A stretch of 64,000 nt of DNA, from positions 18,213 to 82,212 of IMG/VR virus record IMGVR_UViG_3300032331_003094, one strand, 5' to 3'. How positions within the stretch are numbered: the first letter of the stretch is position 1; every line of letters begins with the position of its first letter. Below the pieces are notes generated by a model. It had not been told where the DNA came from. It saw only the letters and a list, made by a program, of their open reading frames with translations, and searched no databases. Below, one piece after another: positions 1 to 21,551 of the stretch. Made by a program: the position numbers and the translations under genes. This stretch comes from a virus.

Positions 1-198
1 GTCATTATCATGTAATGAGGCGCAGGCAATCTCATATCCACGACGCCAACGTGTCCAAGCTGATTCACGATCTAGTACTGAAATTGATCCTGGGACACCG
101 CCCTTGGAAAACTCAGTGCTAATTGTTTGTACACGAAAAGGATTTGGGTCTTGTGTTCGACCAAAAGATCCAAATACATCGCCTCCTCTGGGCGTCAT
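1..198 (-). CDS. N-terminal part of a hypothetical (probably virion) protein, runs off the window
   Basis: ATG at 198, open frame MTPRGGDVFGSFGRTQDPNPF... to the window edge, directly after the stop of 202..981. Confidence 0.6.
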   Translation of the reverse strand, partial: MTPRGGDVFGSFGRTQDPNPFRVQTISTEFSKGGVPGSISVLDRESAWTRWRRGYEIACASLHDND

Positions 199-201
199 TT
201 T

Positions 202-981
202 TTAGTAGAAACCGCCTTGTGCATATACATGTACACCTGGGATGTAACCAGAGGAGTTGGGACCATCAGGGAATACACCAACGTAAATGCGGTCGCCACG
301 CTCCAGGTAAATACCTTTATTGCGTAGTGGTGCGGTAGTACCCAAGCCACTGGTGTTACCTGCAGCAGGCATTGGCACAGAAACGACGGGCATTACGTCA
401 GAGCAATCAACACTCTGAGTATTAGCTGGGACTGTTTTAGCGAACAGTAAACGATAGTCGCCACTGCCGGGGATGGGTGTGGTGGTATTACGTGTTTGGT
501 AGAAGGCAAATGTTACGGGTTGTTGATAGCCGTAACCAACACCAAGAAAATTAAAGCCACTAGAGAGGCCGCCGGAATAATTAAGTGCGCCAAGTTTACC
601 CGTAATGGTTGCCGAACCAGTGTAAGTATAATAACCAACGCCACTTGCAGTGCCGGTATTCATGGCGCCCGTAGTAGTAATCGAAACAATCTGTCCGCTT
701 ACCAGGGATACCGCATTGCCTGACGTGGTGGTGTCAAGGGTGTAGTCCGCTGCACGGTAAGCATCATTACGGACAATAGTAATTGAATCAACCACGCCGC
801 CACTATTATTATCTTCGCTTAATGCAGCGTCCATATCCACCAGGATGGAAGGAGCTTGTCCACCTTGTACAAATAAAGTATTGACGGATGCGCTGCCGAC
901 AGTTTGGGTTGTAACTCGGACCGAATCAAATAATGGCCGATCAGTTAACAAGGGTTGCTTGTTTGTACTAGTTGACGACAA
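202..981 (-). CDS. Putative virion structural protein (T/G/S-rich)
   Basis: 259 aa ORF in the structural module; TATAAT 22 nt upstream. Confidence 0.6.
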   Translation of the reverse strand: MSSTSTNKQPLLTDRPLFDSVRVTTQTVGSASVNTLFVQGGQAPSILVDMDAALSEDNNSGGVVDSITIVRNDAYRAADYTLDTTTSGNAVSLVSGQIVSITTTGAMNTGTASGVGYYTYTGSATITGKLGALNYSGGLSSGFNFLGVGYGYQQPVTFAFYQTRNTTTPIPGSGDYRLLFAKTVPANTQSVDCSDVMPVVSVPMPAAGNTSGLGTTAPLRNKGIYLERGDRIYVGVFPDGPNSSGYIPGVHVYAQGGFY

Positions 982-1023
982 TGTCTTTACGCGGTTTTTT
1001 TCATTATAGCGGAATTATTATTT

Positions 1024-1290
1024 TTACTGAGCAAAGCTTGCTAGGTTGCCAAATGGCGTATTTGGTAAATTCACTTCTGCTTGAAATAATGCTTCAGGAT
1101 TGTTTTGCAGAGCTAAAAACCTCTGAAACATGTCAGATTGTGGTTCATTGGCTGAGTCGTCTTTCATCTTATTTAATAAAGCAATGCGTTTTTTAAGTGT
1201 ATAAACAGGGTTCGGCACCACATTGCCATAGAGATATTGACTGGCTTCACTGGGTGAATAAGAGTCTAGATAATCGATACGTGAAGACAT
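1024..1290 (-). CDS. Hypothetical protein
   Basis: 88 aa ORF, co-oriented and tightly packed. Confidence 0.6.
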   Translation of the reverse strand: MSSRIDYLDSYSPSEASQYLYGNVVPNPVYTLKKRIALLNKMKDDSANEPQSDMFQRFLALQNNPEALFQAEVNLPNTPFGNLASFAQ

Positions 1291-1301
1291 TATTAAATTC
1301 C

Positions 1302-2030
1302 TCAGGCAATAGGTGACGAGCCAAGTCCAGACAAAATCCCCTCAGGGAATAAACTTTCAATTGCGCTACGTTTGTATTCATCTAGTAAACTTTGTGCAAT
1401 TGTCTGAGACGTAGACGGCTGTGTAACATCTTGTCCCAGTGCAGCCGATAATGTTTCGCCTACACCTGGCTGCTGTTCACCAGGTAAGGCAGATTGTAGC
1501 TGACCGGGCATAAGCTGTTTCCACCATTGCTTAGTTGGTGGTCTCTTAGTTTCATTGAAGAAAGTGTTTTCACTAAGGTCGGGTTTCGCACCATACTGCC
1601 TTAGTTGTTGCGGCGTTAAAAACCGTCTTTCTCCTTGAACAACAGCAGGAATTAAATTTGTCCCGTACTTAAGCAAATTACCTGTATCTTGTAGATACTT
1701 TGTACTACGAAAATCGGTGACACCACCAAGTTGGCTGGCAACATTTGCTAATTCTTGTTGGCCTTCTGGCGTGCTGTAATAAGCTTGTGCCTTAGCAATA
1801 CCAGGATTTTTGGGATTAAAACCGCCACCTTGAAGAACAGCATATTGACCAGGATTAAGCCAGCTGCCACTAGATCCAAATACTGGATTATGAAAACGAT
1901 TAATTAAAGACGCCAGGGTTCCTGGCTTGACGCCACGTTGCGGATCATATGCTTCCCGCGAGCCCACATCAAATAGTTTGGGGAGAAGCGTAGAGGTTAC
2001 GCCAAACATTGATGGGAGTTGTGGTGCCAT
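1302..2030 (-). CDS. Putative virion-associated cell-wall hydrolase (SleB/Hydrolase_2-like)
   Basis: Motif order REA...LASLINR...PGQY...GGVTDFRS...ENTFF resembles SleB-type hydrolases. Confidence 0.45.
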   Translation of the reverse strand: MAPQLPSMFGVTSTLLPKLFDVGSREAYDPQRGVKPGTLASLINRFHNPVFGSSGSWLNPGQYAVLQGGGFNPKNPGIAKAQAYYSTPEGQQELANVASQLGGVTDFRSTKYLQDTGNLLKYGTNLIPAVVQGERRFLTPQQLRQYGAKPDLSENTFFNETKRPPTKQWWKQLMPGQLQSALPGEQQPGVGETLSAALGQDVTQPSTSQTIAQSLLDEYKRSAIESLFPEGILSGLGSSPIA

Positions 2031-2267
2031 ACTGATGGTCTCCTTATGCTCCTACCCAGTTTGAATCAGCTTTGAGACCAGGGACAAAAACGGTTTGGCA
2101 TGCAAGCACAAGCGTTAATTTGGTCAGGATGCTTTTAACAAACTTAGGGCAAAGAATCATTGGTTTAATGCGGGAACACTGGCCTCCATGAATACAGAAG
2201 TATTCGTTATCCAGTAGGTGGACTTACCCACTGATGTGGTGCCAAGTAACTTTAGTTTACCAAAGGT

Positions 2268-3275
2268 TTATTTGAGGCCTTGTTGCATGTATGCTTGCCG
2301 CAGGAATGCACTATCTTTGGCTACCTTGGCAAAGTCTGGTGCCGAGAAAAGCTGTTGGCCATACGATGCTTTGATCATACCTTCAGATAAAGGTTGTTGT
2401 ACGGCACCAGGATTGAAGACTTGGGGTGTTGTGGACACCATGCCAACACCTGGGATGGGAGTACCAAATGTCTGTTGGTAGTCCATGGTCATCGGTGTTG
2501 AGACCGCGCTAGTGGCATCAAATTGATTTGTGGGCATTGGTAAACCACCTAAGGGAGAACCGCCTGCATTAGACATGCCAGGAGCGGTGCGTGATTCTGC
2601 GTACCCCATTTGACCGGACTTAAGTTTAGCGGCCAGTAACGGATTAGTTTGCGCCCAGATTTCTAAACCAATGCGTTGTTTTTCAGCAGGGCTAGCGGCA
2701 GTGTTGTACTGCTTGGTTAAGTCAGCAACTTGATATTTTTGAAATAAAGGATTTTGTGCGGTTTGTTGAGCAATACGAGCTTTTTCTACTTCGTAATTAC
2801 GATCTAAAACTGCATTATCTCTTGTATTTTTTTGTGGAAAATATTTACTAACTGCTTGAGCACTTTGCACTAAATCTGCGCCCGTAACAGGTTGGTTTGG
2901 ATTAAATCCAGGGGGGTTGTATTGCTCCAGCCTTGTGCCACCTGCTGCTGTTGGTAAAGGGTTATGTCCACCTAAAAGCGAATTCATAAAACGCCCTGGA
3001 GCCGAAAGTGTTTCACCAACACGATCAGTAAAGAGTTGCCCTTGAGGAGTTTTGCGGAATCCGGTCCAGGCTTCGGCACCAGCTTGAATTACAGGTGCTA
3101 AGACACTTGCGGTACCAAGACTGCCCAGAATACTACCAACTCCTCCAATACGGCTTACTGGTCTATTTGGAATTGCCCTTCCTGCAGGGCCAGACTGTGC
3201 TCTTAGTTGTTCCATGCGAATATCGTATGGCGTGGGAGCATTTCGACCGAATGTTACATTAGCCATTACCGCCAA
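2268..3275 (-). CDS. Putative internal virion protein
   Basis: 335 aa low-complexity G/A/Q-rich ORF in the structural module. Confidence 0.55.
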   Translation of the reverse strand: MAVMANVTFGRNAPTPYDIRMEQLRAQSGPAGRAIPNRPVSRIGGVGSILGSLGTASVLAPVIQAGAEAWTGFRKTPQGQLFTDRVGETLSAPGRFMNSLLGGHNPLPTAAGGTRLEQYNPPGFNPNQPVTGADLVQSAQAVSKYFPQKNTRDNAVLDRNYEVEKARIAQQTAQNPLFQKYQVADLTKQYNTAASPAEKQRIGLEIWAQTNPLLAAKLKSGQMGYAESRTAPGMSNAGGSPLGGLPMPTNQFDATSAVSTPMTMDYQQTFGTPIPGVGMVSTTPQVFNPGAVQQPLSEGMIKASYGQQLFSAPDFAKVAKDSAFLRQAYMQQGLK

Positions 3276-3727
3276 ACCTCATGAAGATAGATACGTGATC
3301 CGACTGCTGTGTCGGCTGGCCCAGGTAAGGCCTGGATAAATTCAGCACCAGAGCGTTCATACCGATAACGCGCCTGGTATTCGTCTTTGTAGTTAGGTAC
3401 AAACAAGATACTGGCCAGACGATTGGTTTCGTACAAATAAATTTGATTCCAAACCTTTAATGCTTCTGCAGCATTGCTGGAACGGATTGTGCGATCAACG
3501 TCACCAATGATGCTTTCCAACCTGGTATTAGGGTTAGAAGCAACCTCTGTTTTCTTTTCGGCCGTATCACAACGACCGATTTGAATAACAATCTTGTCGT
3601 AGAAGTACGAATCTGGGACGGTGTTTAATGCTTCTTCGAGCCGACTGTAATCGCCAGCTGGCACAGAAACAGTAAAGTACCCCAGGTGGTACCTGACCCT
3701 GCTTTTATCGAAGTCAGATAACTGCAC
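3266..3727 (-). CDS. Putative head completion / head-tail connector protein
   Basis: 153 aa helical ORF (MQLSDFDKSRVRYHLGY) downstream of capsid genes; function by position only. Confidence 0.45.
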   Translation of the reverse strand: MQLSDFDKSRVRYHLGYFTVSVPAGDYSRLEEALNTVPDSYFYDKIVIQIGRCDTAEKKTEVASNPNTRLESIIGDVDRTIRSSNAAEALKVWNQIYLYETNRLASILFVPNYKDEYQARYRYERSGAEFIQALPGPADTAVGSRIYLHEVWR

Positions 3728-3766
3728 TAACTTAAGACATTATTTTCAATTATAAGAGTTAGAAAC

Positions 3767-4474
3767 TCAACCCCAGATAGCCTTTGTATATTCTTCCGGC
3801 AAACCTGTTGGTGTTTGTAATCCGGCACCTGGATTTAAAGCTTGGTTCAATAAAGAAGCAGTGACTTGCTCCTTCATTGCATCCAAGAAAGATTGAGGTT
3901 TTTTTGCTCGCTCTCTTGATTCCGCATTGTATTGTGTGCCATATAAAAATGCTTCAAGTAAATCTTGGGTTCTTTGATTTGCTTGATCGTAATTTTGTGG
4001 TGCATTAATTGGGGGTGTTTGACTTGCAGTGGCGCCCCCCAAAGATGCTAGGTGGCCAAGACCAATTTCATATTTGTTATCACCGGTTTTAAATGTACCA
4101 AGATTTCCGAATCCTCCTTGATTGGCAAGGGGTGTATAAGCCCCCTCTCCCACATATTTCAACTGTGTGCCAGCTGGCAATGCAAGATCTTCTCCTTGGT
4201 GAAAAGTACTCGCACCAGCAGTTGGCGCAGAACGTCCACCAAATCCAGACGTGACTTGAATACCAGACTGTGGGTTGACTACAATTTTTCCAGATGCGTC
4301 TTTGATGAATGCAGGAATTTCCCCTTCACCAACACGTAATCCCATAAGGGGACTACGAATTGTACTTGGATTAATGTATTGATTTGTTGCTAAATCTTTA
4401 ACGTACAAATGTGCATGGGGACCAGTAGCTGTCCCTGTTTGACCAACTGTACCTAAGAATGTTTTTGTTGCCAT
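3767..4474 (-). CDS. M23 family metallopeptidase, circularly permuted
   Basis: GTVGQTGTATGPHAH (HxH) at N-terminus, then VTSGFG.R..P...FHQGEDLA (HxxxD), GGFGN and GHL. Confidence 0.75.
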   Translation of the reverse strand: MATKTFLGTVGQTGTATGPHAHLYVKDLATNQYINPSTIRSPLMGLRVGEGEIPAFIKDASGKIVVNPQSGIQVTSGFGGRSAPTAGASTFHQGEDLALPAGTQLKYVGEGAYTPLANQGGFGNLGTFKTGDNKYEIGLGHLASLGGATASQTPPINAPQNYDQANQRTQDLLEAFLYGTQYNAESRERAKKPQSFLDAMKEQVTASLLNQALNPGAGLQTPTGLPEEYTKAIWG

Positions 4475-4504
4475 GTTCCTTTACCCTTATCTGTATTTTA
4501 AAAT

Positions 4505-4528
4505 AAAAAACCCCGCATTTCTGCGGGG
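4505..4528 (-). terminator. Rho-independent terminator
   Basis: Minus strand CCCCGCA-GAAA-TGCGGGG followed by a T run, after the HhH gene. Confidence 0.85.
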
Positions 4529-4551
4529 CAATAAAGGAGATGAGTTGGTAA

Positions 4552-4962
4552 CTAAACCCTGATCAAGTTAGCTGCCATAACGGCATCCCAATCAACACGT
4601 TTAATCCTTTTAAGCTGCTCAAGATTGTTAAACCTTTCACCCGATAATGACATCTGGAGATCTTTAATCTCACGGGCAGTCTTAAGACCAATTCCCTTAA
4701 TATGATCTGCGATCATCTGCGGAGTGGCACTATTGATATTTAAACGAGTATCGGGCGGAAAAACACGAGGTTCTTCTTTTGATGCTTTGTCCTTTACTTG
4801 AAGTGTTTGGACTTTTTTAGTCGCTACTTCATCAGGATTTAATTCAGATTTGTAAGCGGTAAAAAGGCGACCATCTTGGTCTTCGACCATGAACCAGTCG
4901 CCATTATCAAACTCGCTAACAATTTTGACGCGTGCGCCAGTTTTTTTGTGCTGATAAAGCAT
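4552..4962 (-). CDS. Helix-hairpin-helix (ComEA-like) DNA-binding protein
   Basis: RLNINSAT...IKGIGLKTAREI...FNNLEQLKRIKRV. Confidence 0.75.
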   Translation of the reverse strand: MLYQHKKTGARVKIVSEFDNGDWFMVEDQDGRLFTAYKSELNPDEVATKKVQTLQVKDKASKEEPRVFPPDTRLNINSATPQMIADHIKGIGLKTAREIKDLQMSLSGERFNNLEQLKRIKRVDWDAVMAANLIRV

Positions 4963-4999
4963 AGGTACCAGGAGTTATCTGGTACCTACTTTAGCCTAA

Positions 5000-5830
5000 T
5001 CAGCCGCTAGTGACGGTACGACCGGTCAGATATCCATCGATATCTTCATAGCCAGGAGCATCATCCGGACGGATGTAGCACACTTCGACAACCAGGTAGC
5101 CAGTGCGGCCAGCAGCCACGTCAGCATCCGAGATGTACACACCACCAGAGGCAGTGGTGGCGTTAGCGGAACCCTTGGCAAACACGCCGAGAAGGGTGGA
5201 AGCAGTGGCTTGGTAATAAACGTTGGTATTGGTAACGCCAGTAGCGCCGGTAGCGGTAAGGAAAGGATCAGTACCGAAGGCTTGGCTACCACCAGAGAAG
5301 TAAATCTTGGTGGATGCATCACCAGAGACCGTGGAGGTCAGGTTGGCCTGAATCACGTTTTCGCCAACGCCAGAAGCAGCAGTACCGGTGGCGGCAACAG
5401 CAGTACCGGTGTTGCGACCGAAGGAGATCACGTTACCAGTAGAAGCATAAACACCAGAGGCGGCACGGCCATCCCAACCAGAAGCCACGGAAATCGCAGC
5501 GCGATACACGTAGGCAGCTTGGGTGGAGTTACCAGAGATCACCATACCGGTGATATCGGTGCGGGTGTCGTCATTCCGATAGGGGGAAGGAACGATCACG
5601 CTCATGTACTGACCGCTGGCGGTAGCGGAGCCAGATGCCCAGGTGATGGGCACATAACCACGTTGTTGGAAATAACGATAGCCAGGAACAGCCAACACAG
5701 AAGTGGGGCCTGCTTTGGAGGCGTTATAGCTGGTACCACCTTGAGCAGTGGTATCAATATTTTTGTACCAACCGTTCAGGGGCTCTGCCCAGTTACCTGG
5801 GTAGATTTTTTTAGCAGACAAGTAAGTCAT
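5000..5830 (-). CDS. Putative head decoration / minor capsid protein
   Basis: 276 aa A/G/T-rich ORF right after the major capsid gene, AGGAG RBS, capsid-like codon bias. Confidence 0.6.
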   Translation of the reverse strand: MTYLSAKKIYPGNWAEPLNGWYKNIDTTAQGGTSYNASKAGPTSVLAVPGYRYFQQRGYVPITWASGSATASGQYMSVIVPSPYRNDDTRTDITGMVISGNSTQAAYVYRAAISVASGWDGRAASGVYASTGNVISFGRNTGTAVAATGTAASGVGENVIQANLTSTVSGDASTKIYFSGGSQAFGTDPFLTATGATGVTNTNVYYQATASTLLGVFAKGSANATTASGGVYISDADVAAGRTGYLVVEVCYIRPDDAPGYEDIDGYLTGRTVTSG

Positions 5831-5861
5831 CTATTTCTCCTTGAGATTTTATTTATGGTTA

Positions 5862-8742
5862 TCAAACGATGCCGTCATCTTGGATGAAGCTAAAGCCGGT
5901 GGTAACGAAATCTTTGTTCAGGATTTCAAAACCAGCGTACAATTGCCAAATCAGGATGATGAAGCGGCTGAAGTCATCGTTGTTGTTGATCAACACCTGG
6001 GCGTTAGGACCGCCGATGCCGACGCCGATGGCTTGGGGACCGAAGAAGTAACCTTGAGCAACTTCTTGGGTGGAGTAGTTGGAACCACCGTCAAAAGATG
6101 CACTCAGGGTCTTGGTGGGGAAGTTGGTCGATTCGAAGAACTTCACACCTTCAAACTGCACGCCGGTAGGCATAACAGGTTCACCAGCCAGGAAATAACC
6201 TTGGCCAGCTTGGGGACCCATGTAGAAGCTGGAGTTGTTGGGCATCGCAGGGTTGCCCATGTACATCCCCTGACCGGGATTACCAGCGTAACGAGCGATC
6301 TCACGGAAGTCAGGATCACGCCGCAGGTGCAGCATGAAAGTAGGATCGCAGATGCAACGATACAGACCATCGGAATAGGTCGGCACGTTACGCTTGCGCA
6401 AGTCTTTAACAACGTTCAGTAAGTCAGTACGGACTTGGAACTGTTGAACTTGAGCACCATATTCAGTGGAAGTGTAGGAAACACGACCGGAAGAATCTTT
6501 AGCTTTGTTACCAGCGAAGTAGTAACCACCTTGGGTGGTAGAAGCTTGGCCATTGGCTTCAGCTTTGGACAGTTCGTCAATGAAGACGCGGTCACGCCAC
6601 CGACGATAGTCATCCAGCAGGGTGAGGCTACCGATGGACTGGTGGAACATATTCAGGTTACCGGTATCCAGCAGCAGACGCTGGGCGGTAATCAGGGTTT
6701 CACGAGCAATCTTGAAGGTCGAAGGCTGGGTCGGATCGCCCGGGTCCGCAGGACCGGTGTATTCCTTAAGCACCACCAGGACTTTCTCCTTGGTGATGTT
6801 ACGGCTATTGGCGGTACCGATGGTTTGGTCGGCAATACGCTCGCGGCTATCCTTCGTACCAGGGGTTCCCCAGAACTTGTACAGGTGTTATCCCAAAGGC
6901 TCTTTATCCTTTGGTTCTTACGGTTTATCATCCCGTAAGTTCAGACTATATCATCAAACAATTACTGATTGTTTGTCCTGCGCTCGTGCCCTCTTATCGT
7001 CTTCATCTGCAAAAGCAATGTTAAGACTCGCTGCGTATGTTTCAGAATTTTTAGTTCTGTTTTTATAACGCAGGGTCACTTTATTTTGTAACGTTGAGTG
7101 CATGTGGGGCTTTAGTAACGTTACAAAATCAGGCATCTCTCCACTTAATATTCTTAAACGATAGTGCGCTCTATCTAAATAGAGTTTTGGATTTACGTTG
7201 GCAATATCATGAATCCAAGAGGCAATTATTTTTGCTTCTTGTTCCATGCAGTAAGTAGCAAGTAGGCCAACATTGTTGGAACTAACCACGCAACCGTCAT
7301 CCATCCAAAAAACAGCTAACGCTTCCAGTCCTAAATCACATAAGTAATCTTTGGAAAAAAGTTTTTTACCTTTTGGATAAAACTGTTCCCTCAATGGAAC
7401 CAGTAATTTACTGGTAACCATAGACTGGCAAGAATAATAAGTTTTCAAGGTGCGCTTATCGTAAACCTCTCTTGAATTTACTTTTCCGTTTGTACCAAGT
7501 TCTTGATTAATTTTGGTCATTTTCCACTCTAAAAACTGTTTTTGTTTTTGAGAGTGTGTAAAAGATAAGTAACAAGTGTTCTTACCTTTTGGATAACCTA
7601 AACACCCGTCGCCAAGAGTACAGGCTTTGGAAAAGGAGAGGCTCACTGTGTGACCAAGGGTAGTCGTTGGACCTTCCGACCATTTCTGGGCGGCTTGGCT
7701 GCTGATTGCCCAATGCTAACGCATCGAAGGGTTTCCAGCAATTCACAGGATTTAAAGACCGCTACAAACTCAACGGTCTAATTGAACGGTTTGACCAGGC
7801 TGGCGGGTGAAGTCGTGGACAACCACGGGCTCTACTGCCATTTCGGCAATGTAGGCGGGGTGGGGACGATAGAGTTCCGCACCCAAGATTTTTGGAAAAT
7901 CGTTCTCCTGGTCTCTAGTTTCTTAGAGGGGTGGACTATCTCTTCATCCCTGTGGGATGCCGGACGCTAAATCTGGTATTACGTAACAAGTGCGTGTTAC
8001 ACCCAGTAGTCTCTGCACGTTCCAATCACGGTCTTGATTGGCTTCGCTCAGGATTACCCTCGGCTTTACGTTAGGGCTTCCCTGAATTCATCCGGTTTGC
8101 ACTCATCAATTGCTCGATGAGGTGACAACGTTGAGCGTTCAGTTGAGGCATGCTATGCTTTGGAAAAATGTTGATAAACAACATGGAACCAAAACTTGTA
8201 CCTGGGTTTGGTAACCTTTACTTAACGGAAGACGGTCGAGCTTTCAAGAAGAAACTTAATGAACAGGATCAAGAAGAACTTGAAGAACTTCCTATTAGTT
8301 CGACCAGTGTTTATGACAGGGTTTCAGTTCTTGTAGATGGAAGAAAGAAACGCTTTCACTTACACGTGTTAATGGCAATTGCTTTTCTTGGGTTAGACCT
8401 AAGAGCCCATGGCAATCATAATTTTTCTCTTCAGGTAAATCATTTAGATAACAACAAGCGAAATAATCGACTTGATAATCTGGAAATCGTTACCAAACAA
8501 GAGAACTTAACGAAGGCTTGGGAATCTGGTTGTTACCAAAATAATGGTTTTGCCAGTAAAGGGAAACCGAAGAAGTCTTTAAGAAAGTTTTCTTCGGAAG
8601 ACGTGATGCAAATTAAAGCTTTGAAGGAGGCTGGGCTTTCATATCGAAAGATTGCCGAAAAGTTCAACTGCAATCACGGAGCTATTTACCAAATCCTAAA
8701 AGGGCATACCTACCAGGATCTGAACTAGCTATCAATAAACAC
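5862..8742 (-). CDS. Major capsid protein, spliced: join(8742..8731, 7904..7773, 6881..5862), 387 aa
   Basis: GGAGG RBS, GTG start; exons join in frame as MFID|NDFPKILGAELYRPH...VQLDR|YKFWGTPGTKDSRE...VLKEYTGP; lies after portal and scaffold; highly expressed codon bias. Confidence 0.9.
6882..7772 (-). mobile_element. Group I intron 2 of the capsid gene (IA-like, 891 nt)
   Basis: 5' exon ends U (GACCGU); IGS UUGUAGCGGUC pairs both exons; P GAAUUGCUGGAAA, Q AAUCAGCAGC, R CAACGACUAC, S GAUAUAGUC; P3 UCCUGUG/CGCAGGA; terminal G at 6882. Confidence 0.92.
6954..7646 (-). CDS. Intron-encoded LAGLIDADG homing endonuclease (two-motif, I-SceI-like)
   Basis: ACTLGDGCL and LAVFWMDDG motifs; AT-rich; inserted between P7 and P3' and overlapping P3'/P8/S. 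Confidence 0.88.
   Translation of the reverse strand: MSLSFSKACTLGDGCLGYPKGKNTCYLSFTHSQKQKQFLEWKMTKINQELGTNGKVNSREVYDKRTLKTYYSCQSMVTSKLLVPLREQFYPKGKKLFSKDYLCDLGLEALAVFWMDDGCVVSSNNVGLLATYCMEQEAKIIASWIHDIANVNPKLYLDRAHYRLRILSGEMPDFVTLLKPHMHSTLQNKVTLRYKNRTKNSETYAASLNIAFADEDDKRARAQDKQSVIV
8131..8159 (+). promoter_or_regulatory. Putative sigma70-type promoter for the antisense HNH gene
   Basis: TTGAGC-17 nt-TATGCT, 23 nt before ATG 8183. Confidence 0.5.
8183..8728 (+). CDS. Intron-encoded HNH homing endonuclease with C-terminal HTH, antisense to the host gene
   Basis: FHLHVLMAIAF...VNHLDNNKRNNRLDNLEIVTKQEN; AGLSYRKIAEKFNC HTH; the ORF track starts at 8150 but 8183 is the more likely start. Confidence 0.88.
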   Translation: MEPKLVPGFGNLYLTEDGRAFKKKLNEQDQEELEELPISSTSVYDRVSVLVDGRKKRFHLHVLMAIAFLGLDLRAHGNHNFSLQVNHLDNNKRNNRLDNLEIVTKQENLTKAWESGCYQNNGFASKGKPKKSLRKFSSEDVMQIKALKEAGLSYRKIAEKFNCNHGAIYQILKGHTYQDLN

Positions 8743-8895
8743 TTTGGTTTATCCTCCAGTGTCTTGTTTTTATTCGGGTGAAAGAACGGACCGAAGTCCT
8801 TTCTTATCTAAAATTTTAGCAGTTGATAATTTATGTGTGAATACATACTAAAAACCAGGCAGTAAATAAATACCACCTGGTTTAAAGTTTGAATA

Positions 8896-9918
8896 TCACT
8901 CCATTACAAACAGTTTGTTTGCAACGGTTCCGGGTTGAGCTTGATTCAGAACACGCCAGGCGTTCTGGGGATCACGGTTCATCACTTCACTGAAACTACC
9001 CCAGAAGTTTTCGGGTTGCTGGGGGCCAGCAGCGTTGGGGGGAGCCGGAAGATTGGCAATACCACCATTGATGGGCTGAGTGCGATAACCACGGGATTCG
9101 AGGTCGGCTTCGCTTTCGTACACGGGGTACGGACCTTCAGGACCAAAGAAACGCAGCGTGTAATCGCTGAGAACATCAGGATTGGTCAGGATTTCGTTAT
9201 AAGCCAGATTCTCTTGGTGCTCATTGACCGAGAAGCTGGCAAAACGTGCCATCACATCATTGGCTTGGGTGCCCCAGGCCACTGCGCTATCCAGCATCCC
9301 TTCAAGTTGAAGGGCGTAATTATTTAGAATTGCCGGAGCTTCTACCCCGAACGCGTCGAACACCTGACGGCTTTCGTTGCTCAGGTTGTAGTAATCCGCG
9401 ATTGCCCGGTCCGTTGCCAGGGCTTGCTCCTCCGACGAAAGCGTCGAAGAGGTTTGGGAATAGCTGGGAGAGTATGCCGGGTTGAGATATGAGGTCGGCA
9501 TCCCCGATTGTTGCGTAGCTGGGGCGCTTGGAGTCCCAAAGTTGGCCGGGGCGTACTGAGGAGTCGTCGTCGACGGTTGACCCTGGAAGGGGGATTGGAC
9601 TGGTGAGCTCAGCAGGCCCACTACCTTGTTGAACGCCGATTCCCAAGGGTTGCTCACTGGTGCTTCCGCTGGCGCCGCCACCGAATAGTTCGGTTGGGAT
9701 TGGGGGGCGTACTGAATAGGGGCGGATTGGTAGCTGGTAGTCGCTTGAGGTATCGCTTGGGGGTAGCTGGTACCCACCTGATACGCCACCGGAGCCGCCT
9801 GCTGGTAGCTCGGGGCTGGTGCTGCCACTGGTGCCGGAGCTGCCATCACGTAGCTGCTGGGTGCTACTGACGGTGCTTGGCTCGTCTGTGGGGTCGATTG
9901 GACGGTAGCGTCCTGCAT
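8896..9918 (-). CDS. Putative capsid scaffolding protein
   Basis: P/Q/A/S-rich N-terminus, between portal and major capsid, AAGGAG RBS. Confidence 0.7.
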   Translation of the reverse strand: MQDATVQSTPQTSQAPSVAPSSYVMAAPAPVAAPAPSYQQAAPVAYQVGTSYPQAIPQATTSYQSAPIQYAPQSQPNYSVAAPAEAPVSNPWESAFNKVVGLLSSPVQSPFQGQPSTTTPQYAPANFGTPSAPATQQSGMPTSYLNPAYSPSYSQTSSTLSSEEQALATDRAIADYYNLSNESRQVFDAFGVEAPAILNNYALQLEGMLDSAVAWGTQANDVMARFASFSVNEHQENLAYNEILTNPDVLSDYTLRFFGPEGPYPVYESEADLESRGYRTQPINGGIANLPAPPNAAGPQQPENFWGSFSEVMNRDPQNAWRVLNQAQPGTVANKLFVME

Positions 9919-11668
9919 AACTCATCTCCTTTTGTAATGCTTCTAAGGTTCGATACAGATAGGGTGTAAGGTCCAGCCTTGGATCTGCAGCCATCGGAAG
10001 ATCCGGTGACTCTGGGTGGGGGGTCTGCATCATTCCACCCACCAGGCGAGCAAACTGCGAGAACGCATTCTGCAATTCGCCTACCATCCTGAACGGGAAA
10101 CCGCTTAACATAGCGGCTCGTTCTTCATCCGTCTTAGACGGAAATAAGAACTTCAGTGCTTCAATGCTATCAACACCTAATTCTTGTAGGTTTCTTACAA
10201 CGATAGAGTTGTTTAAAACGTCTTGAGTTGACTCTTCATAAACAGGTCCAGTCCAACGCCACAAGACGGTTAAGTCCCCATCGGGAATAAGGCCTGTTAC
10301 TCCGGGGGGAATAATTTTTGTCTGCATGCAGGCCATCATGATTTGCTTGACCCTTTCGTCAAAACCAATCATTGCTTGCTTGTACAAATCATTTTCTTCT
10401 GGCGGTGCATCTTCTGGCGGTTCAATTGGTTCTTCCAGGCCGGATGCTTTGGCTAAGGTTGCGCGGAACAAACGTTCCTCTTGGAAAATAATTAACTCAA
10501 GACAACGTGCAATACCGTAAGAATAAATGGCAGTTGCTTTTTTCTTTGCTGTGGCTGATACACGACCAAATAATGATTTGTATTCAGTTGCAGTTACGCC
10601 AGCTGAAATGGATAGTTCATCGACACCACCAAGAGCTGTACGAATCTCTTCTCGAAATTGGCGAGCAAATGCGTTTTGATCACCAGTGATAGCATCTGGA
10701 ACAATGTAACCAACACGGTCGTTTGGCTCCAGGTTTGCAATAACGCGTGGTACACGAATCTGACCATCGATTCCGCGACCGATTGGATCTTGTTTAAATG
10801 TTGACCTACTTAAAGAAGACAAGCTGCCAAACCCTGAGTTGGCTGCAATCGATGGACGTTGAACTGTAGTGTCTGCCCCGGACTCCATAAGGTCTGTTTT
10901 GGGACGAGATGAAAGAAGGGTTGGATTACCAAAGAACTGAACGTTTTTGCGCATGGTGCGAACCAATTCGTCGTGCACGACGATGTGGCTGGCCATGGCG
11001 TCAAATTCGCCAGTACCTTCAGTTGAAAACCCTTTGGGGTTGTTAAAGATTTCAACGCAAGGAATAAAGCCCAAGCTGTTTTTAAATGTTTTGGTTTTAC
11101 CAAGGGCTGTATAGTTTGGTAAATCAAACGACATCTCACTTTCCGAGTGAGTTTCTTCAATGGTACGTCGTTTAATTGAAAGCCTAATAAAACGTTTGGC
11201 GCCTTGGCTGCCAAGTGTTGCAGTCCCGGTAAGATTGGAAACATTTACATTGTCACCAAAGCCATTACCTTGTTTGACTTTATAGCTGTAGATGATTACA
11301 ACTTCATCTAACTCACCATCTACGTTGTAGTAGCTGCGATATTCGTGACTACGGAAGTAATACAGGCGGTAATTTGATTTGGTTGGACGAATATAAAAAA
11401 TGCCTTTGCCGTCACATAGGAAATAATCCCAGATTGAATCCAGGCGCACATCAAGTTGGTTATATTTGATTACACGGTCGAGAAAGTCTTTGCGCTGGTT
11501 GCCAAAGTTATCTTGAGTTGGAAAAAATTCCACACCTTGACGAATCCCAAACATTTTCATTTGGGAAAGATGTGACCCCACAATCATGGTGTCAACATGA
11601 GAACTAGGATCTTTCTCGACTGCCGCGTCGATAATTTCTTTTAAACGCGCCTTGGTATCAACAGCCAT
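9320..11668 (-). CDS. Portal protein (C-terminal 200 codons overlap the scaffold gene)
   Basis: Large ORF between TerL and scaffold/capsid; LGFIPCVEIFN motif typical of portals. Confidence 0.75.
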   Translation of the reverse strand: MAVDTKARLKEIIDAAVEKDPSSHVDTMIVGSHLSQMKMFGIRQGVEFFPTQDNFGNQRKDFLDRVIKYNQLDVRLDSIWDYFLCDGKGIFYIRPTKSNYRLYYFRSHEYRSYYNVDGELDEVVIIYSYKVKQGNGFGDNVNVSNLTGTATLGSQGAKRFIRLSIKRRTIEETHSESEMSFDLPNYTALGKTKTFKNSLGFIPCVEIFNNPKGFSTEGTGEFDAMASHIVVHDELVRTMRKNVQFFGNPTLLSSRPKTDLMESGADTTVQRPSIAANSGFGSLSSLSRSTFKQDPIGRGIDGQIRVPRVIANLEPNDRVGYIVPDAITGDQNAFARQFREEIRTALGGVDELSISAGVTATEYKSLFGRVSATAKKKATAIYSYGIARCLELIIFQEERLFRATLAKASGLEEPIEPPEDAPPEENDLYKQAMIGFDERVKQIMMACMQTKIIPPGVTGLIPDGDLTVLWRWTGPVYEESTQDVLNNSIVVRNLQELGVDSIEALKFLFPSKTDEERAAMLSGFPFRMVGELQNAFSQFARLVGGMMQTPHPESPDLPMAADPRLDLTPYLYRTLEALQKEMSYAGRYRPIDPTDEPSTVSSTQQLRDGSSGTSGSTSPELPAGGSGGVSGGYQLPPSDTSSDYQLPIRPYSVRPPIPTELFGGGASGSTSEQPLGIGVQQGSGPAELTSPIPLPGSTVDDDSSVRPGQLWDSKRPSYATIGDADLISQPGILSQLFPNLFDAFVGGASPGNGPGNRGLLQPEQRKPSGVRRVRGRSSGNSK

Positions 11669-11810
11669 TAATCTTTAACCTGTTCTTTTTGAATCTTAGC
11701 AGCTTTGCGTTCCTTTCTATGTTTTAACCAGGTGCGAAAAAAAGCCAATTCACCAAACGTATACAGCCAGGGCTTCTTTAGTGCTTCTTTAACTAATTTT
11801 CTTTTTTTGG

Positions 11811-12170
11811 TCATGACACAATTTTATTTTGGAAACCAGCAGGAACAGCTTGACCTAATTGTGGTCCAGCATAAAAACCAGCGTTACCCATAGGCGCCAT
11901 ACCTGGAAGCCCCTGAACCAAGGGAAGTTGGGGACCTGCACCAGGCATCAAGCCGCGTTTGATAAGCTCTTCGTTGAGTTGCTGGTTTTGTTGCGTACCA
12001 CCTTGGTACAAACGCTGAAGTTGTTCGCCCGAACGCTTGCCCAATGGACCTTGTCCTTGTGGAATATCAAAACTAGGGCCACCAGCAATTAAAGGACTGT
12101 AGCCAACAGAAGGAAAAAAGCCAGGGTTACCAGGGGCGCCTGGTACGTTTGCTGCTCCGCCGTAATACAT
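11811..12170 (-). CDS. Hypothetical G/P-rich protein
   Basis: 119 aa ORF with TAAAAT 22 nt upstream. Confidence 0.6.
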   Translation of the reverse strand: MYYGGAANVPGAPGNPGFFPSVGYSPLIAGGPSFDIPQGQGPLGKRSGEQLQRLYQGGTQQNQQLNEELIKRGLMPGAGPQLPLVQGLPGMAPMGNAGFYAGPQLGQAVPAGFQNKIVS

Positions 12171-12194
12171 TTTATTATTTCCGTTCTTTTTATT

Positions 12195-12377
12195 TTACTC
12201 CTCTAATACCACATACCCAGCAGGATCATTTAATTTGCTGAGAATAAATCCTTCGCCTTTTACTTTCCAATCAAGGACATCACCTTCATGCCAACCAAGA
12301 TCTTCAAGTACTTCTTCGGGAAGAATGATAAACGATTCACCGTTTTCGTCTTCTTGGACTTCGAGAACGTAACTCAT
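12195..12377 (-). CDS. Small AbrB/SpoVT-like protein
   Basis: IILPEEVLEDLGWHEGDVLDW pattern. Confidence 0.65.
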   Translation of the reverse strand: MSYVLEVQEDENGESFIILPEEVLEDLGWHEGDVLDWKVKGEGFILSKLNDPAGYVVLEE

Positions 12378-12382
12378 GAAAC

Positions 12383-12652
12383 TTAAAGTTTTTCAATAAG
12401 TTTATCAAGCTTTGCATTAATCTGCTTAAAGTTGTCGTGCATTTGTTGTAATTCCCTAAGGAAGTCAACTTTTAATACGTACTCCAATGGCATTCGATTA
12501 ATCTGCTCTTGGAGGTTGTCAACCTTTCTTTCGTTTTCTAGAATGCGGTCGTATAACGCATGCAGACGATCCTGATGACGACCCCAAAAGTTAGCCGAAA
12601 GTGGTGACACGGAAGTAGATGTATTTTCTTTTATTTTACGATTAGTAATCAA
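12383..12652 (-). CDS. Hypothetical coiled-coil protein (true start may be GTG 12610)
   Basis: Heptad-rich; MPLEYVLKVDFLRE. Confidence 0.55.
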   Translation of the reverse strand: MITNRKIKENTSTSVSPLSANFWGRHQDRLHALYDRILENERKVDNLQEQINRMPLEYVLKVDFLRELQQMHDNFKQINAKLDKLIEKL

Positions 12653-14168
12653 GATGTAAATTGCCTTTTCTCATAAGGCCTGTCACAAGCCATACTAATG
12701 CATCGACCGTATCGTCATGACCACTTACGCCGAAGTTTGTGAGTTCCTCGAAGAGATTTGTGAAGTTTCGGAAACGATTAAAGATAATTTTTCGATCTTC
12801 AAACATACCAATGATACCCCGGAACCGTGCGAGCTTGTCAGCACGGAACCCTTTGACTGGGTGCCAAATCAAATTGTAGAGACCTTCGTCATTCAGGCAA
12901 ACCCGCTTAAAGTCAGCTTCGAGGGAGGCTTGGTACTGGACGGCTTCTGACCAAACATCACATGTTGAGTAAGTAGGGAAATAATTTTTGTTTTCATCTT
13001 GTCCAATAATGGACCAATCATTAAGCAATTCTTTAAGAGCATCTAGTTTTTCCAGGTTCCCCATGACGCGAATACGTCGATAATCAATAATATGGATACG
13101 ATCTTCAATCCGACCACCCAGTACAAACACCGTGTAATCATTCTTTTCTTTAATGCCAGCAGACAGGTCAACACCAATCCCCAAGGCATCAAATTCTGTT
13201 GCAATTTCTGCCTTGACAATAAGTTCTGGCGCCAATGAAAGTTCATTTTGCCTGACAATTTGATTCATGTACTGAAAGGAAAAAGCAATGGGTGCTTGCC
13301 TTTTCTTTTCTTTCAGGTACTCTAGCGACCACATATCGGGCCAGTACGATTCCTCCTCACCGGTCTTCGGATCGTTTTGAATTGCTGACAAAACAATTTG
13401 AGTCCAGTTGTTCTGTTCGTTGAATGTGGTGGCGTGAATGTCATCGTGCCTGAATCGGGTACCAAGACAAATCGCCCTGGCACCCTCAAACATCGTTGGT
13501 GCAATCACCGCATTCCAGTTATCCTGCATTGTCTTACGAATGTCAGGATTGCCAATATCAGCAGCAGACTTAATAGCGTCATCGATCATTACCAGGTGCG
13601 AACGTTTAGAGGTCACTGAACCTTTAAGGCCAGCGGCGCAGAGGGTAAATTGTTCATCACCTGTTACATCAATACCAGCAAATTTATGATCAATAGACCA
13701 ATACTCATTACTGGTAACGTTTTTAAGAAGACGTACTTTGGGAAATACTTCTTGATATCGCTTGCTTTCAATAATGCGTTTAATGGTTGCTGATTTAGAA
13801 CGTGCAATATCAACCGTATAGGAAAGATAAAGAATCTGCAGTGGAAGCTTGGCTTCAGTGTGAATGCCAATTGCCCATGCCGTCAGCAAACCCAAGACTG
13901 TTGATTTGGCCGACCCACGAGGGGCAAGTAAGTCTACGTTGGGACCTGCAATTTTAATTAGACATTGACTATCTTCACCCGTTACAAAGTGACGATGCCA
14001 TTGTTTATGGTGTTCAGCAGGAGGTTTATCCGCTACATAATCACAAAAATATCCAAAGTCTTCACGTGCAAGTTTTGCTTGCTCGTAATTTTTAACCTCT
14101 TTGACTTGATGATTTTTTGCCGCCGCACGTGCATTACGCCGATACGCGAGATGAACGTAAGAAGGCAT
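12642..14168 (-). CDS. terL: Terminase large subunit
   Basis: Walker A LAPRGSAKST, Walker B VMIDD, LGTRF coupling motif, nuclease IGVDLS and HDDTVDA. Confidence 0.92.
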   Translation of the reverse strand: MPSYVHLAYRRNARAAAKNHQVKEVKNYEQAKLAREDFGYFCDYVADKPPAEHHKQWHRHFVTGEDSQCLIKIAGPNVDLLAPRGSAKSTVLGLLTAWAIGIHTEAKLPLQILYLSYTVDIARSKSATIKRIIESKRYQEVFPKVRLLKNVTSNEYWSIDHKFAGIDVTGDEQFTLCAAGLKGSVTSKRSHLVMIDDAIKSAADIGNPDIRKTMQDNWNAVIAPTMFEGARAICLGTRFRHDDIHATTFNEQNNWTQIVLSAIQNDPKTGEEESYWPDMWSLEYLKEKKRQAPIAFSFQYMNQIVRQNELSLAPELIVKAEIATEFDALGIGVDLSAGIKEKNDYTVFVLGGRIEDRIHIIDYRRIRVMGNLEKLDALKELLNDWSIIGQDENKNYFPTYSTCDVWSEAVQYQASLEADFKRVCLNDEGLYNLIWHPVKGFRADKLARFRGIIGMFEDRKIIFNRFRNFTNLFEELTNFGVSGHDDTVDALVWLVTGLMRKGNLHLDY

Positions 14169-14357
14169 GAGTTAGTACCAGGTATTACTGAATACTAACT
14201 CATTTCTTTTTCTTTTGTTTTTGTTGTTGATATTGACGTGCTTTATCCAAGGCAGCTTTCCGCTTGTCTTGATCAGACATCTCGGTACCATCTTCGTTTG
14301 TTGCCTCTTTCTTTTTGAAATGAGCAACGAGTGCCGGTGGCATTTTGGAATCAGACA

Positions 14358-14840
14358 TCAATCAAATTCGCGGCTTGCGTATCCACCACCCATGGTAATT
14401 CCTTTGCGGCGTGGTCGACCTTGTTGATTCCCTTGGGCAGCACCAGTGGATGCCATGCGTTGTTGATCTGTCGGTGCACCGCGTCCACCAAATTGTTGTG
14501 CCATTTCACCAGGGGTTTCCGATTGTTGCGGACGTGCACCAGGGATGCCTACCCCACCGGAACGCTGCATATAAGTTTCATATGCCTGAGAATATTGATC
14601 GTCTGGTGAAGTACCCGCTGCCTGTAAGTTAGGGGCCGGGCTGCCAGTGGAAGTTTGTGCTGGTTGATTAAGAAAAGATGGTTCTGGACGATTGGGGGTC
14701 GTTCCAGGTTGTGCTTGCGCTGCTTGTGTTGCAGGCACATTAGCAACTGCTTGCTTTTGTTGATTTAATGCATTTTGATAAAAACCAGATCCACCTGCGC
14801 CAGGTGCACCGGATGTTGGTCGTTGAGCAGTAGCACCCAT
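14358..14840 (-). CDS. Hypothetical Q/G/A-rich protein
   Basis: 160 aa ORF, co-oriented. Confidence 0.55.
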   Translation of the reverse strand: MGATAQRPTSGAPGAGGSGFYQNALNQQKQAVANVPATQAAQAQPGTTPNRPEPSFLNQPAQTSTGSPAPNLQAAGTSPDDQYSQAYETYMQRSGGVGIPGARPQQSETPGEMAQQFGGRGAPTDQQRMASTGAAQGNQQGRPRRKGITMGGGYASREFD

Positions 14841-14853
14841 GGTGAATACCTAA

Positions 14854-15009
14854 TTACTTTTTCTTTTTATTTTGCATTTCCCGCAGACGAGCCATTTTGT
14901 CTTTGGGGCTCTCCTTGGGGGGAACTGCTTTGCCAGCAGCTGGCTTACCTTTGGGGGGCACAGCTTTACCGGCAGCGGGCTTGCCTTTGGGGGGAACTGG
15001 AGCGGGCAT
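14854..15009 (-). CDS. Small basic protein with 12-aa tandem repeat (GKPAAGKAVPPK)
   Basis: ATG at 15009; 36-bp tandem repeat at about 14916..14998. Confidence 0.65.
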   Translation of the reverse strand: MPAPVPPKGKPAAGKAVPPKGKPAAGKAVPPKESPKDKMARLREMQNKKKK

Positions 15010-15056
15010 GATATTTATGCTGTTGTTCTTATTATACGAGAAGTGCTGCTTTATTT

Positions 15057-15641
15057 TTATTCTTCTAATTGCATACGAGACCAAACGCTCATCGATGCTT
15101 CTTGTAAAGGTGATTCAATTGGATCATCTTTAAAAATAAACATTAACTCACGAATGGCGCGATCAGCACCAGCCATTAAAAGACCTTTGCGATCTTTGTT
15201 GGAAGTAAACTGTTCAACCTGTGCAATTGTGCCACGCAATTCTTTTTGCATGCTGGCAATACGAGCAACGCCTGCGTCTCGCTTGACGGAACAGTTTTCA
15301 ATATCTTCACGCAATTTTCGAATATCTTCTTGCATTTCTGCAATTTCAAGAAGAAGAATCTTGCGGTGATCTGGTTTTTTGTAATTGGCTTTAATCCATT
15401 CTTCACACGAAACAATGCTCCCTGTATAACCAAGAAACTTGGCATACAGAAAACATTCAATTATGGAGTAATTATCTTCGGAAAATGAACAAAAAGACTC
15501 TTGGGTAGCGGAGTCAAGATTATCGATCCAGGTATCAAACAGCTCAATACTTATAAGCTTGTTGTGCCTGTCGATAGTCTCGGGCTTCGTCGCTTTCGCT
15601 GTATTTTTGCTTTTGGGCGGCAAGAGCTTCTTGTTGAGCAC
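15057..15641 (-). CDS. Helical protein, candidate terminase small subunit
   Basis: Coiled-coil ORF upstream of terL; function by position only. Confidence 0.35.
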   Translation of the reverse strand: MLNKKLLPPKSKNTAKATKPETIDRHNKLISIELFDTWIDNLDSATQESFCSFSEDNYSIIECFLYAKFLGYTGSIVSCEEWIKANYKKPDHRKILLLEIAEMQEDIRKLREDIENCSVKRDAGVARIASMQKELRGTIAQVEQFTSNKDRKGLLMAGADRAIRELMFIFKDDPIESPLQEASMSVWSRMQLEE

Positions 15642-15807
15642 GGGTGTCCTCTAGTTTTTTCTTGGAATATTCGTAGGCAACACCTGCGGCTTTTTTATAC
15701 GTTTCTAAAGGAAACGCAGCTGCTGCGTCAGCGGAAGAAGTATCTCCAAACGGATCAGCTTCTTGCCAAGCCCCAGAATCGTCTTTATAGCCCCAGGTAG
15801 TTGCCAC
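15544..15807 (-). CDS. Hypothetical virion protein
   Basis: 87 aa ORF. Confidence 0.55.
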   Translation of the reverse strand: MATTWGYKDDSGAWQEADPFGDTSSADAAAAFPLETYKKAAGVAYEYSKKKLEDTRAQQEALAAQKQKYSESDEARDYRQAQQAYKY

Positions 15808-15822
15808 GGTTATTACCTAATT

Positions 15823-16059
15823 CTAGAAGTTGCTCATCATTTGAGCAAGGCCTTGTGCATAGATGTTGGGACGAGCCGAAACATCCTTGGCTTGCTGTTG
15901 ACGAATTTTAGATTGTTCTAAACGGCCCAGGAGAGTTTGGAAATCGCCCAGTGAAGCGGCACCCATGCCACCATACTGTTGCTGGAACTGTTGTTTATCA
16001 ATAATGGCCTTATCTTCGGCAGACATGCCTTGATAAATGGGATCGTCTCTGTAAGCCAT
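15823..16059 (-). CDS. Hypothetical virion protein
   Basis: 78 aa Q-rich ORF, TATAAT upstream. Confidence 0.6.
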   Translation of the reverse strand: MAYRDDPIYQGMSAEDKAIIDKQQFQQQYGGMGAASLGDFQTLLGRLEQSKIRQQQAKDVSARPNIYAQGLAQMMSNF

Positions 16060-16103
16060 GTTAATTCTTTAAACGAACTTTTTAAATTATAGCAAGGTTA
16101 GTT

Positions 16104-17000: not shown

Positions 17001-17048
17001 GATTATTCTCCTAGTTGTTTACAAATTTGAACATTTATTTCTTTTATT

Positions 17049-17630: not shown

Positions 17631-17632
17631 TA

Positions 17633-18151: not shown

Positions 18152-18153
18152 GA

Positions 18154-19023: not shown

Positions 19024-19053
19024 GTTTTTGGTCTTCTATATGATTTAATTTTA

Positions 19054-20693: not shown

Positions 20694-20729
20694 ATATCAA
20701 CACTTTTCTTTAATTATATTTCAGATAAC

Positions 20730-21332: not shown

Positions 21333-21551
21333 TTAGCTTTCACCTTTTTTCTTCTTATGTAATCCTACAAGTGTTTGACGCAAGCGTGCTTGTTTAACAG
21401 TTTTATCATCATATTTTTCTGGATCAGCAAGAACATTTTCTTGTAATTGAGCAGAAGTAATACCTTTCTTTTTAGCTTTAGCCGTAAAGGCACCTTCTTT
21501 CATATCCATGTCTTGGATCCATTTCTTATCTTTTTTCTTATCGTTTGCCAT
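21333..21551 (-). CDS. Small basic hypothetical protein
   Basis: KKWIQ...KEGAFTAKAKKKG...KQARLRQTL, a common small phage protein pattern. Confidence 0.65.
   Translation of the reverse strand: MANDKKKDKKWIQDMDMKEGAFTAKAKKKGITSAQLQENVLADPEKYDDKTVKQARLRQTLVGLHKKKKGES

Follow-up and report, generated by a model that had tools for sequence, protein, structure and literature searches.

Here we describe a split major capsid gene in a 64,000-nucleotide stretch of viral DNA (the window, positions 18,213 to 82,212 of IMG/VR record IMGVR_UViG_3300032331_003094), with a homing endonuclease gene of the HNH and helix-turn-helix (HTH) type lying backwards inside its first intron. The source genome, 82,212 bp with direct terminal repeats, belongs to an uncultivated virus whose capsid, portal and neighbouring genes match those of Synechococcus phage S-EIV1, a polar freshwater cyanophage; judged by its sequence, the window comes from an uncultivated relative of that phage. 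We put at roughly 80% the probability that the element is a mobile group I intron inserted after capsid codon 4 of an S-EIV1-like freshwater cyanophage, with an I-HmuI-like HNH gene inverted in the loop of its P1/P1a hairpin.

The capsid gene lies on the minus strand and is interrupted by two group I introns, and its exons can be read against S-EIV1, where the gene is without introns (L001 5752..6903; it starts GTG TTC ATT GAT ACC GAC TTT..., MFIDTDFPKILG, and reads GTG-MFIDTDFPKILGAELYRP...QTVQLDRYKFWG). Joined, exons 1, 2 and 3 give 1164 nt and 387 amino acids (aa) with no internal stop, 334 of the 387 residues (86%) being identical to the S-EIV1 capsid; the 304-aa open reading frame (ORF) at 5862..6776, the bulk of exon 3, has 83.9% aa identity. 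An initial annotation, made from the letters alone, had proposed the splice sites of intron 1 (8731|8730 on the 5' side, directly after G7905 on the 3' side) and a first exon of only four codons, and these assignments are correct, since alignment to the intronless S-EIV1 gene gives the same exons. The 3' end of exon 1 is the U of the U.G pair at the splice site. No third intron was found in the genome.

For comparison, a capsid query against IMG/VR gave at least 597 relatives, 80 of which were kept, and the insertion site of intron 1 (site 1) is covered in 64 related loci. A second clade of 25 further loci was reached through HNH homologues of 52–64% identity, with a 61%-identical homologue as query; the HNH copies examined number 39, 14 from the window's clade and 25 from the second.

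On the minus strand, a full-length group I core matches the whole of the Rfam model (RF00028, 8155..7912, 88.2 bits against a cut-off of 50) and is 95–97% identical among the copies of the window's clade and 75–81% identical in the second. The internal guide sequence (IGS) that had been picked out in the initial annotation lies 600 nt from the 5' splice site, and this distal placement is upheld. Exon position -4 covaries with the IGS, the window's clade having U-A and the second clade C-G (AUUGAU with GUUGUCA against AUCGAU with GUUGUCG), and it is because of this compensatory switch that we take the IGS at 8130..8123, on comparative evidence, to be the one under selection; ORF-less alleles of the intron agree. 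A guide sequence near the 5' splice site, the alternative that the initial annotation had allowed for, was examined and rejected, as both the ORF-less alleles and the compensatory change between exon and IGS point to 8130..8123. The local 'P1' that the Rfam alignment draws at 8155..8118 was likewise set aside, being an artefact of forcing the model that contains several non-pairs. The intron ends ...CCAGGAG at 7905, with CAGGAG|AACGA kept in both clades, and a possible P10 would join CGUU (8130..8127) to AACG, the first four bases of exon 2.

The long loop is closed by a further helix, P1a, a 6-bp clamp around ~575 nt. It takes five forms across both clades, every one fully paired, and the C-terminal residues of the HNH protein track these changes (LN*, LS*, WS*), so that sequence and covariation together bear out the claim that the clamp uses sequence antisense to the final HNH codons. 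The closure as first drawn survives only in part: GUUCAG/CUGAAC stands, with its compensatory changes, and the AGC/GCU extension is dropped because it is not conserved in loci L007 and L038 or in the second clade; AGC pairs with the IGS as ordinary P1.

The gap between splice site and IGS is indeed filled, as had been claimed, by an HNH-HTH gene on the opposite strand, with a TAG stop (8726-8728) that falls 2 nt short of the splice site. Position 8183 is the sole start common to all copies, with ATG or GTG there; in-frame ATGs upstream, at 8150 and 8169, are not conserved, and a start at 8150 was rejected since L062, L055, L041 and L058 have no start codon at that place. The protein matches Pfam HNH_3 (31.7 bits, above the cut-off of 24.8) and PHROG 59 (HNH endonuclease), the motif LQV(N/D)H..DN.KRNN..(D/E)NL is kept in all HNH copies, and the C-terminal part matches HTH_38 with 26.2 bits, just under the cut-off of 27. 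It aligns to I-HmuI (PDB 1U3E) with an E value of 2e-4; the alignment begins at the HNH motif, takes in the C-terminal region and runs to residue 176. There is no paralogue of the gene elsewhere in the genome. A distant homologue (36% identity) sits on an unrelated 99-kb viral contig (L110:3001-4089), just upstream of a group I core and on the same strand, a sense or free-standing layout.

That this ORF is far beyond chance is indicated by its state in both clades, because all 14 + 25 copies are intact and the median pairwise ratio of non-synonymous to synonymous substitution (dN/dS) is 0.10 (range 0.07-0.18, from 11 distinct copies of the window's clade in a gapless alignment). Many pairs in that clade have a dS above 1, and the HNH region is 78–88% identical there, against 95–97% for the ribozyme core.

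Gene and ribozyme also share the palindrome CTAG next to the splice site. On the minus strand its UAG is in frame with exon 1 and is met after one intron codon, and ribosomes on unspliced capsid RNA would therefore stop at once; over 8183..8728, no minus-strand ORF exceeds 46 aa. CTAG is present in the ORF-less introns of L082 and L038, and CTGG stands in its place in the ORF-deleted intron of L024.

The 64 loci that cover site 1 form an allelic series, with 48 intronless alleles, 13 that carry the 826-nt HNH intron and three with an ORF-less intron. Two of the latter, L082 and L038, have a P1a loop of 10 nt, the P1 region reading UUGAU|AGCUAGUUCAG, then the loop, then CUGAACGCUC.ACGUUGUCA. 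This comparison with related ORF-less introns, proposed in the initial annotation as a check, shows that they share both P1a and the IGS, and because GUUCAG/CUGAAC is present in them it is part of the native ribozyme; the HNH gene occupies the terminal loop of the P1a helix. The third, L024 (intron at 1824-2099), is a deletion derivative: its 28-nt P1a loop starts GUCCUGGUA (GTCCTGGTA), a remnant of the 3' end of the HNH gene, which marks it as a natural deletion of that gene. In the second clade, all 25 loci have the HNH gene backwards, adjoining a group I core, and at the same capsid site, with capsids only 62–67% identical to that of the window.

Such a patchy distribution would be expected of a mobile element. 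On the capsid exon-3 tree, no fewer than 9 gains or losses are required on branches with good support to explain the HNH intron, and pairs of nearly identical capsids, such as L019 and L020, can differ in the introns that they carry. The flank upstream of the start codon (8743-8760) reads GGAGGATAAACCAA in 15 of the 16 complete intron-bearing alleles and is near-identical in the remaining one (GGAGGATAAGCCAA, L007), whereas most intronless alleles have a GGAGGATAAAACAA flank (...AAAACAA...) instead; the flank shared by the intron-bearing alleles, rare among the intronless ones, looks like the product of co-conversion during homing. Among the alleles without an intron, many preserve ATTGAT|AACGA exactly at the junction, and three that have the AAACC flank carry GAC there instead of GAT, possibly a case of escape at the target site.

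All credible genes within 1..24523 lie on the minus strand with the sole exception of the HNH ORF, which must therefore have a promoter of its own, as the initial annotation had reasoned. The promoter that it named is present: TTGAGC and TATGCT, separated by 17 nt, abut the IGS, and TAnnnT is kept at the same place in nearly all copies of both clades with its middle bases free (TGC, CAG, GGC, TCA, GGA, ATT, CTT, TAC, TAG, TGT), a pattern that suits a -10 hexamer more than it suits coding sequence. HNH-bearing introns of both clades keep TTGA almost without exception, and the two ORF-less introns lack it. The part of the proposal that fares less well is the strength of the site, which at 8 of 12 hexamer matches is weak and was not called by our scan; we regard it as a plausible HNH promoter. 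Between the candidate -10 hexamer and the HNH start lies an inverted repeat whose TGTT and ACAA do not vary among 14 copies drawn from the two clades. Our guess is that it could act as an operator or as a translational hairpin that hides the start codon.

Together, these observations suggest the following course of events. The HNH gene came to lie in reverse in the loop that caps the P1/P1a hairpin and, because it sits there, the ribozyme must form P1 across ~600 nt, helped by the conserved 6-bp clamp GUUCAG/CUGAAC. The antisense of the 5' strand of this clamp supplies the last two codons of the gene, and the adjacent CTAG its stop, as sequence and covariation show. Transcription would start from the gene's own promoter, probably TTGAGC-17-TATGCT beside the IGS, and in mixed infections the enzyme would probably act on capsid alleles that lack the intron, nicking or cutting them, after which repair would copy the intron in; the activity is proposed on the basis of the protein family and the patchy distribution. 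The backwards orientation would keep ribosomes off the ribozyme, and the likeliest consequence of the arrangement is that strong capsid transcription and abundant intron RNA would limit HNH expression.

Several observations weigh against parts of this account. The candidate HNH promoter falls below the scan threshold of 9/12, a level at which 3.6 sites are expected by chance in 3 kb, and its -35 hexamer is also native intron sequence, so that its conservation may reflect the ribozyme; L007 has an HNH gene without TTGA. The HNH gene diverges as fast as its host gene (dS above 1) and therefore gives no direct sign of recent horizontal spread, and recombination elsewhere in the capsid region could be the source of part of the patchiness. 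Five RNA-library runs, finally, contain only 5-6% of the sampled words, and four of them (three on record as RNA) provided unstranded contigs. In 3 runs from 2 studies, contigs skip exactly the 826 nt of intron 1, a joint that intronless relatives would also give, and since these contigs are only ~90% like the window they may stem from such relatives. The body of the HNH gene is almost uncovered in three RNA runs, which is uninformative as the contigs show no strand, starts or levels. Two further joints were seen in these data. In run X20, a contig of depth 2.9 has the final base of the intron, G7905, linked to C8137, which directly follows P1a; a truncated circle of the intron would give such a joint. 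Neither this joint nor the exact skip of intron 1 is distinguishable from what relatives or DNA carry-over would leave. In run X16, an odd joint links 8166 to 7903 with CTTGT between.

The candidate promoters of the HNH and capsid genes converge from ~640 bp apart, and their RNAs would therefore be complementary over ~560-640 nt, including P1, exon 1 and the capsid ribosome-binding site (RBS). The capsid promoter-like site matches 10/12 and its TGCTAAAAT part is also found upstream of the S-EIV1 capsid gene. Since the HNH stop, exon 1 and the capsid RBS all lie within 32 nt, no terminator can precede exon 1, which agrees with what the initial annotation had noticed, and a terminator scan called none on the plus strand over 8728-9298. 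By folding, plus-strand hairpins at ~8783-8806 and ~8852-8887 could end a plus-strand RNA, neither with a clean U tract. The second of these hairpins, AAACCAGG...CCTGGTTT, has the upstream gene, with its stop at 8896, on one side and the capsid promoter on the other; on the minus strand it is followed by a T run, as in a likely terminator, and on the plus strand by TTTAAAGTTTG.

Which of the two RNAs would prevail can be argued either way. Tentatively, and short of an even chance, capsid transcription could silence the HNH gene, the pre-mRNA and the excised intron acting on it in such a way that the endonuclease is made only before or outside the capsid burst. The capsid promoter is the stronger of the converging pair by consensus, and the excised intron holds the full complement of the HNH mRNA, although these promoter strengths are guessed from consensus matches. 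Phage intron endonucleases, I-TevI among them, are reportedly kept under tight restriction as a rule.

Selection on the HNH gene raises a different question, namely whether it is kept for homing itself or mainly as a weapon that cuts the capsid gene of co-infecting relatives, or for some other benefit to the phage. Purifying selection that is strong over a deep divergence (dS above 1, dN/dS 0.1) suggests a persistence longer than the usual cycle of gain, decay and loss of homing genes predicts, and in phage PhiPA3 an intron endonuclease is reported to act in the competition between phages that infect the same cell (PMC11620839). The patchy distribution and the ORF-less and ORF-deleted alleles, however, fit an ordinary homing cycle, and the two roles are not mutually exclusive; we consider it unlikely that use as a weapon, or some other benefit, outweighs homing.

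The polarity opposite to silencing of the HNH gene was that of the initial annotation, in which the HNH mRNA is a cis-antisense regulator that pairs with the 5' strand of P1, exon 1 and the RBS and blocks capsid splicing or translation until homing is complete. An HNH transcript that includes its stop must cover exon 1 and, within the same 32 nt, almost certainly the RBS; the first plus-strand hairpins come only at the two positions given above, and the 5' splice site is transcribed ~600 nt ahead of the IGS and is exposed meanwhile. In cyanophage S-PM2, moreover, an antisense RNA links the psbA intron to a homing endonuclease gene (Millard 2010, cited in PMC5931967). By consensus, though, the HNH promoter is the weaker one, at 8/12 against 10/12 with an extended -10 for the capsid, so the antisense RNA is probably far scarcer than its target, and relatives with an ORF-less intron or none express their capsid without any such RNA. 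We hold this model to be unlikely, and silencing of the HNH gene by capsid transcription to be at least as likely, given that the capsid promoter looks stronger. Both polarities could be combined in a two-way antisense switch, set in the P1 substrate helix, between the HNH gene and the capsid gene: at first, HNH mRNA would cover the RBS, exon 1 and the 5' splice site and so delay capsid production for the time of homing, capsid transcription and excised intron RNA would later turn the HNH gene off, and the repeat over the HNH start could serve as a putative operator for self-repression by the HTH of the enzyme. This, too, strikes us as rather improbable. That the long P1 loop has killed the ribozyme, leaving a defective capsid gene or reflecting an assembly artefact, is hardly credible, for while P1 should be slower to form with 575 nt inserted after the 5' splice site and ahead of the IGS, the same layout recurs in 39 independent assemblies from two clades, complete genomes with terminal repeats among them, in which P1, P1a and the core are intact and compensatory changes are seen, and the window holds no second copy of the capsid gene.

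The features of the locus are collected in Table 1. Intron 2, whose junctions are likewise taken from S-EIV1, is also present in L082 and L038, and in L070 and L040 its site is occupied by another insertion, of ~993 nt. Upstream of the capsid gene, a portal-like ORF of 782 aa overlaps a 340-aa ORF in another frame over 599 nt (9320-9918), an overlap that S-EIV1 shares (L001 2430..4733 and 4180..5157). In the S-EIV1 record (L001, KJ410740), the 383-aa major capsid ORF at 5752-6903 is not annotated, and a hypothetical protein on the minus strand and a short plus-strand fragment are listed in its place.

Table 1 Features of the split capsid gene and its first intron, in window coordinates.
Feature	Position	Strand	Details
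HNH-HTH homing endonuclease gene	8183..8728	+	181 codons and TAG; between 5' splice site and IGS
CTAG palindrome	8725..8728	both	TAG is the HNH stop; UAG ends M-F-I-D-S* on unspliced capsid RNA
Candidate HNH promoter	8131..8159	+	TTGAGC (8131-8136), 17-nt spacer, TATGCT (8154-8159); abuts IGS
Inverted repeat TGTTG-N5-CAACA	8169..8183	+	between hexamer and ATG; overlaps the A of the HNH ATG
Capsid promoter-like site	8841..8813	-	TTCACA, 17-nt spacer, TAAAAT, TG before -10; 10/12, putative function
Capsid ribosome-binding site GGAGGA	8752..8757	-	kept in S-EIV1 and related loci
Capsid exon 1	8742..8731	-	12 nt, GTG TTT ATT GAT (M F I D); homology with S-EIV1 and 48 intronless metagenomic alleles
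Group I intron 1	8730..7905	-	826 nt, omega-G at 7905; Rfam RF00028 and junctions of intronless alleles
P1 5' strand UGAU|AGC	8734..8728	-	pairs with GUUGUCA (8129..8123), U.G at splice site
P1a 5' strand GUUCAG	8725..8720	-	antisense of the last two HNH codons, CTG AAC
P1a 3' strand CUGAAC	8142..8137	-	pairs with GUUCAG
P1a forms			GUUCAG/CUGAAC; GCUCAG/CUGAGC; ACUCAG/CUGAGU; GCUUAG/CUAAGC; GCUCCAC/GUGGAGC
IGS CGUUGUCA	8130..8123	-	directly 5' of P2 (normal place); same IGS in ORF-less introns
Ribozyme core P2-P9	8122..7905	-	Rfam alignment; extra hairpin between P7 and P3'
Capsid exon 2	7904..7773	-	44 codons, starts AAC GAT TTT; S-EIV1 homology
Group I intron 2	7772..6882	-	891 nt; junctions from S-EIV1
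Intron 2 core	7782..7502	-	Rfam 39.4 bits (weaker than intron 1)
Intron 2 LAGLIDADG_2 gene	7646..6954	- (sense)	Pfam LAGLIDADG_2, 78.7 bits
Capsid exon 3	6881..5862	-	339 codons and stop; PHROG 1357, major head protein

[quoted passage not shown] As the allelic series is complete, with intronless, ORF-less, ORF-bearing and ORF-deleted forms, the life cycle of a mobile intron is directly testable here, and so is the price that a phage pays for a P1 loop of 600 nt in the gene that it expresses most. Split capsid genes of this kind go unannotated in two widespread freshwater cyanophage clades, and the reference S-EIV1 record is itself without a correct capsid annotation, which matters for the automated annotation of viral metagenomes.

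Among known endonucleases, I-HmuI is the best match with a solved structure and of similar size (174 aa, against 181 aa here). It is an HNH nicking endonuclease encoded in sense orientation in a DNA polymerase intron of the Bacillus phage SPO1. Identity between the two is low, and the activity of the protein described here is a prediction.

For inverted genes of this kind, T7-like polymerase introns had been named in the initial annotation as the precedent, which does not hold for the T7-like example Pf-WMP3. This cyanophage does have a group I intron that encodes an HNH nicking endonuclease, with the ORF beginning in P6a (PMC3428280), and because its RBS is drawn in P6b of the intron RNA the ORF is sense-oriented. 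In cyanophage S-PM2, the psbA group I intron is tied to the gene of an endonuclease, F-CphI, by a cis-antisense transcript, the RNA CfrI, for which an effect on splicing or mRNA stability has been suggested (Millard 2010 and Zeng 2009, both cited in PMC5931967). In that account, F-CphI is free-standing, its gene lying outside the intron on the psbA strand, and the antisense RNA is non-coding, whereas here the mRNA itself would be antisense.

The true precedents for the inverted gene are the capsid intron of mycobacteriophage LittleE and introns of nuclear ribosomal DNA (rDNA). In LittleE, a group I-type intron in the major capsid gene has its endonuclease gene, gp14, on the bottom strand, and splicing was demonstrated by reverse-transcription PCR (Pope et al. 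2013, PMC3706429). The enzyme is LAGLIDADG/I-CreI-like with an HNH-related tail, in contrast to the HNH-HTH protein here; gp14 lies 3' of the ribozyme core and not in P1 (in L130, core 2859-3062 on the plus strand, gp14 3065-3598 on the minus strand); the intron is not at the start of the gene, unlike the present one after codon 4; and no promoter, clamp helix or antisense overlap with the RBS was described.

Nuclear rDNA introns likewise carry an endonuclease gene inverted in a peripheral loop. Antisense genes for His-Cys box endonucleases occur in Didymium Dir.S956-2 and Diderma Dsq.L2066 (PMC9548176, PMC3679873), that of Didymium being expressed from an internal promoter (PMC9548176); in such introns P1 is one of the insertion sites, genes are found in either orientation, and the possibility that antisense RNA interferes with the host transcript has been discussed openly (PMC3679873, PMC9548176). 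These systems differ in being eukaryotic, with RNA polymerases I and II, spliceosomal introns, polyadenylation and a separate nucleolus and nucleoplasm, compartments that a phage lacks, as well as in having His-Cys box enzymes and an rRNA host gene. In the literature, our coverage of which is incomplete and leaves such an absence unproven, no group I intron of a phage or bacterium turned up whose P1 holds an endonuclease gene in reverse. The layout as such is thus known from these two precedents, and what is new here is the family of the enzyme, HNH, and the site at which its gene has been inserted, the P1 loop.

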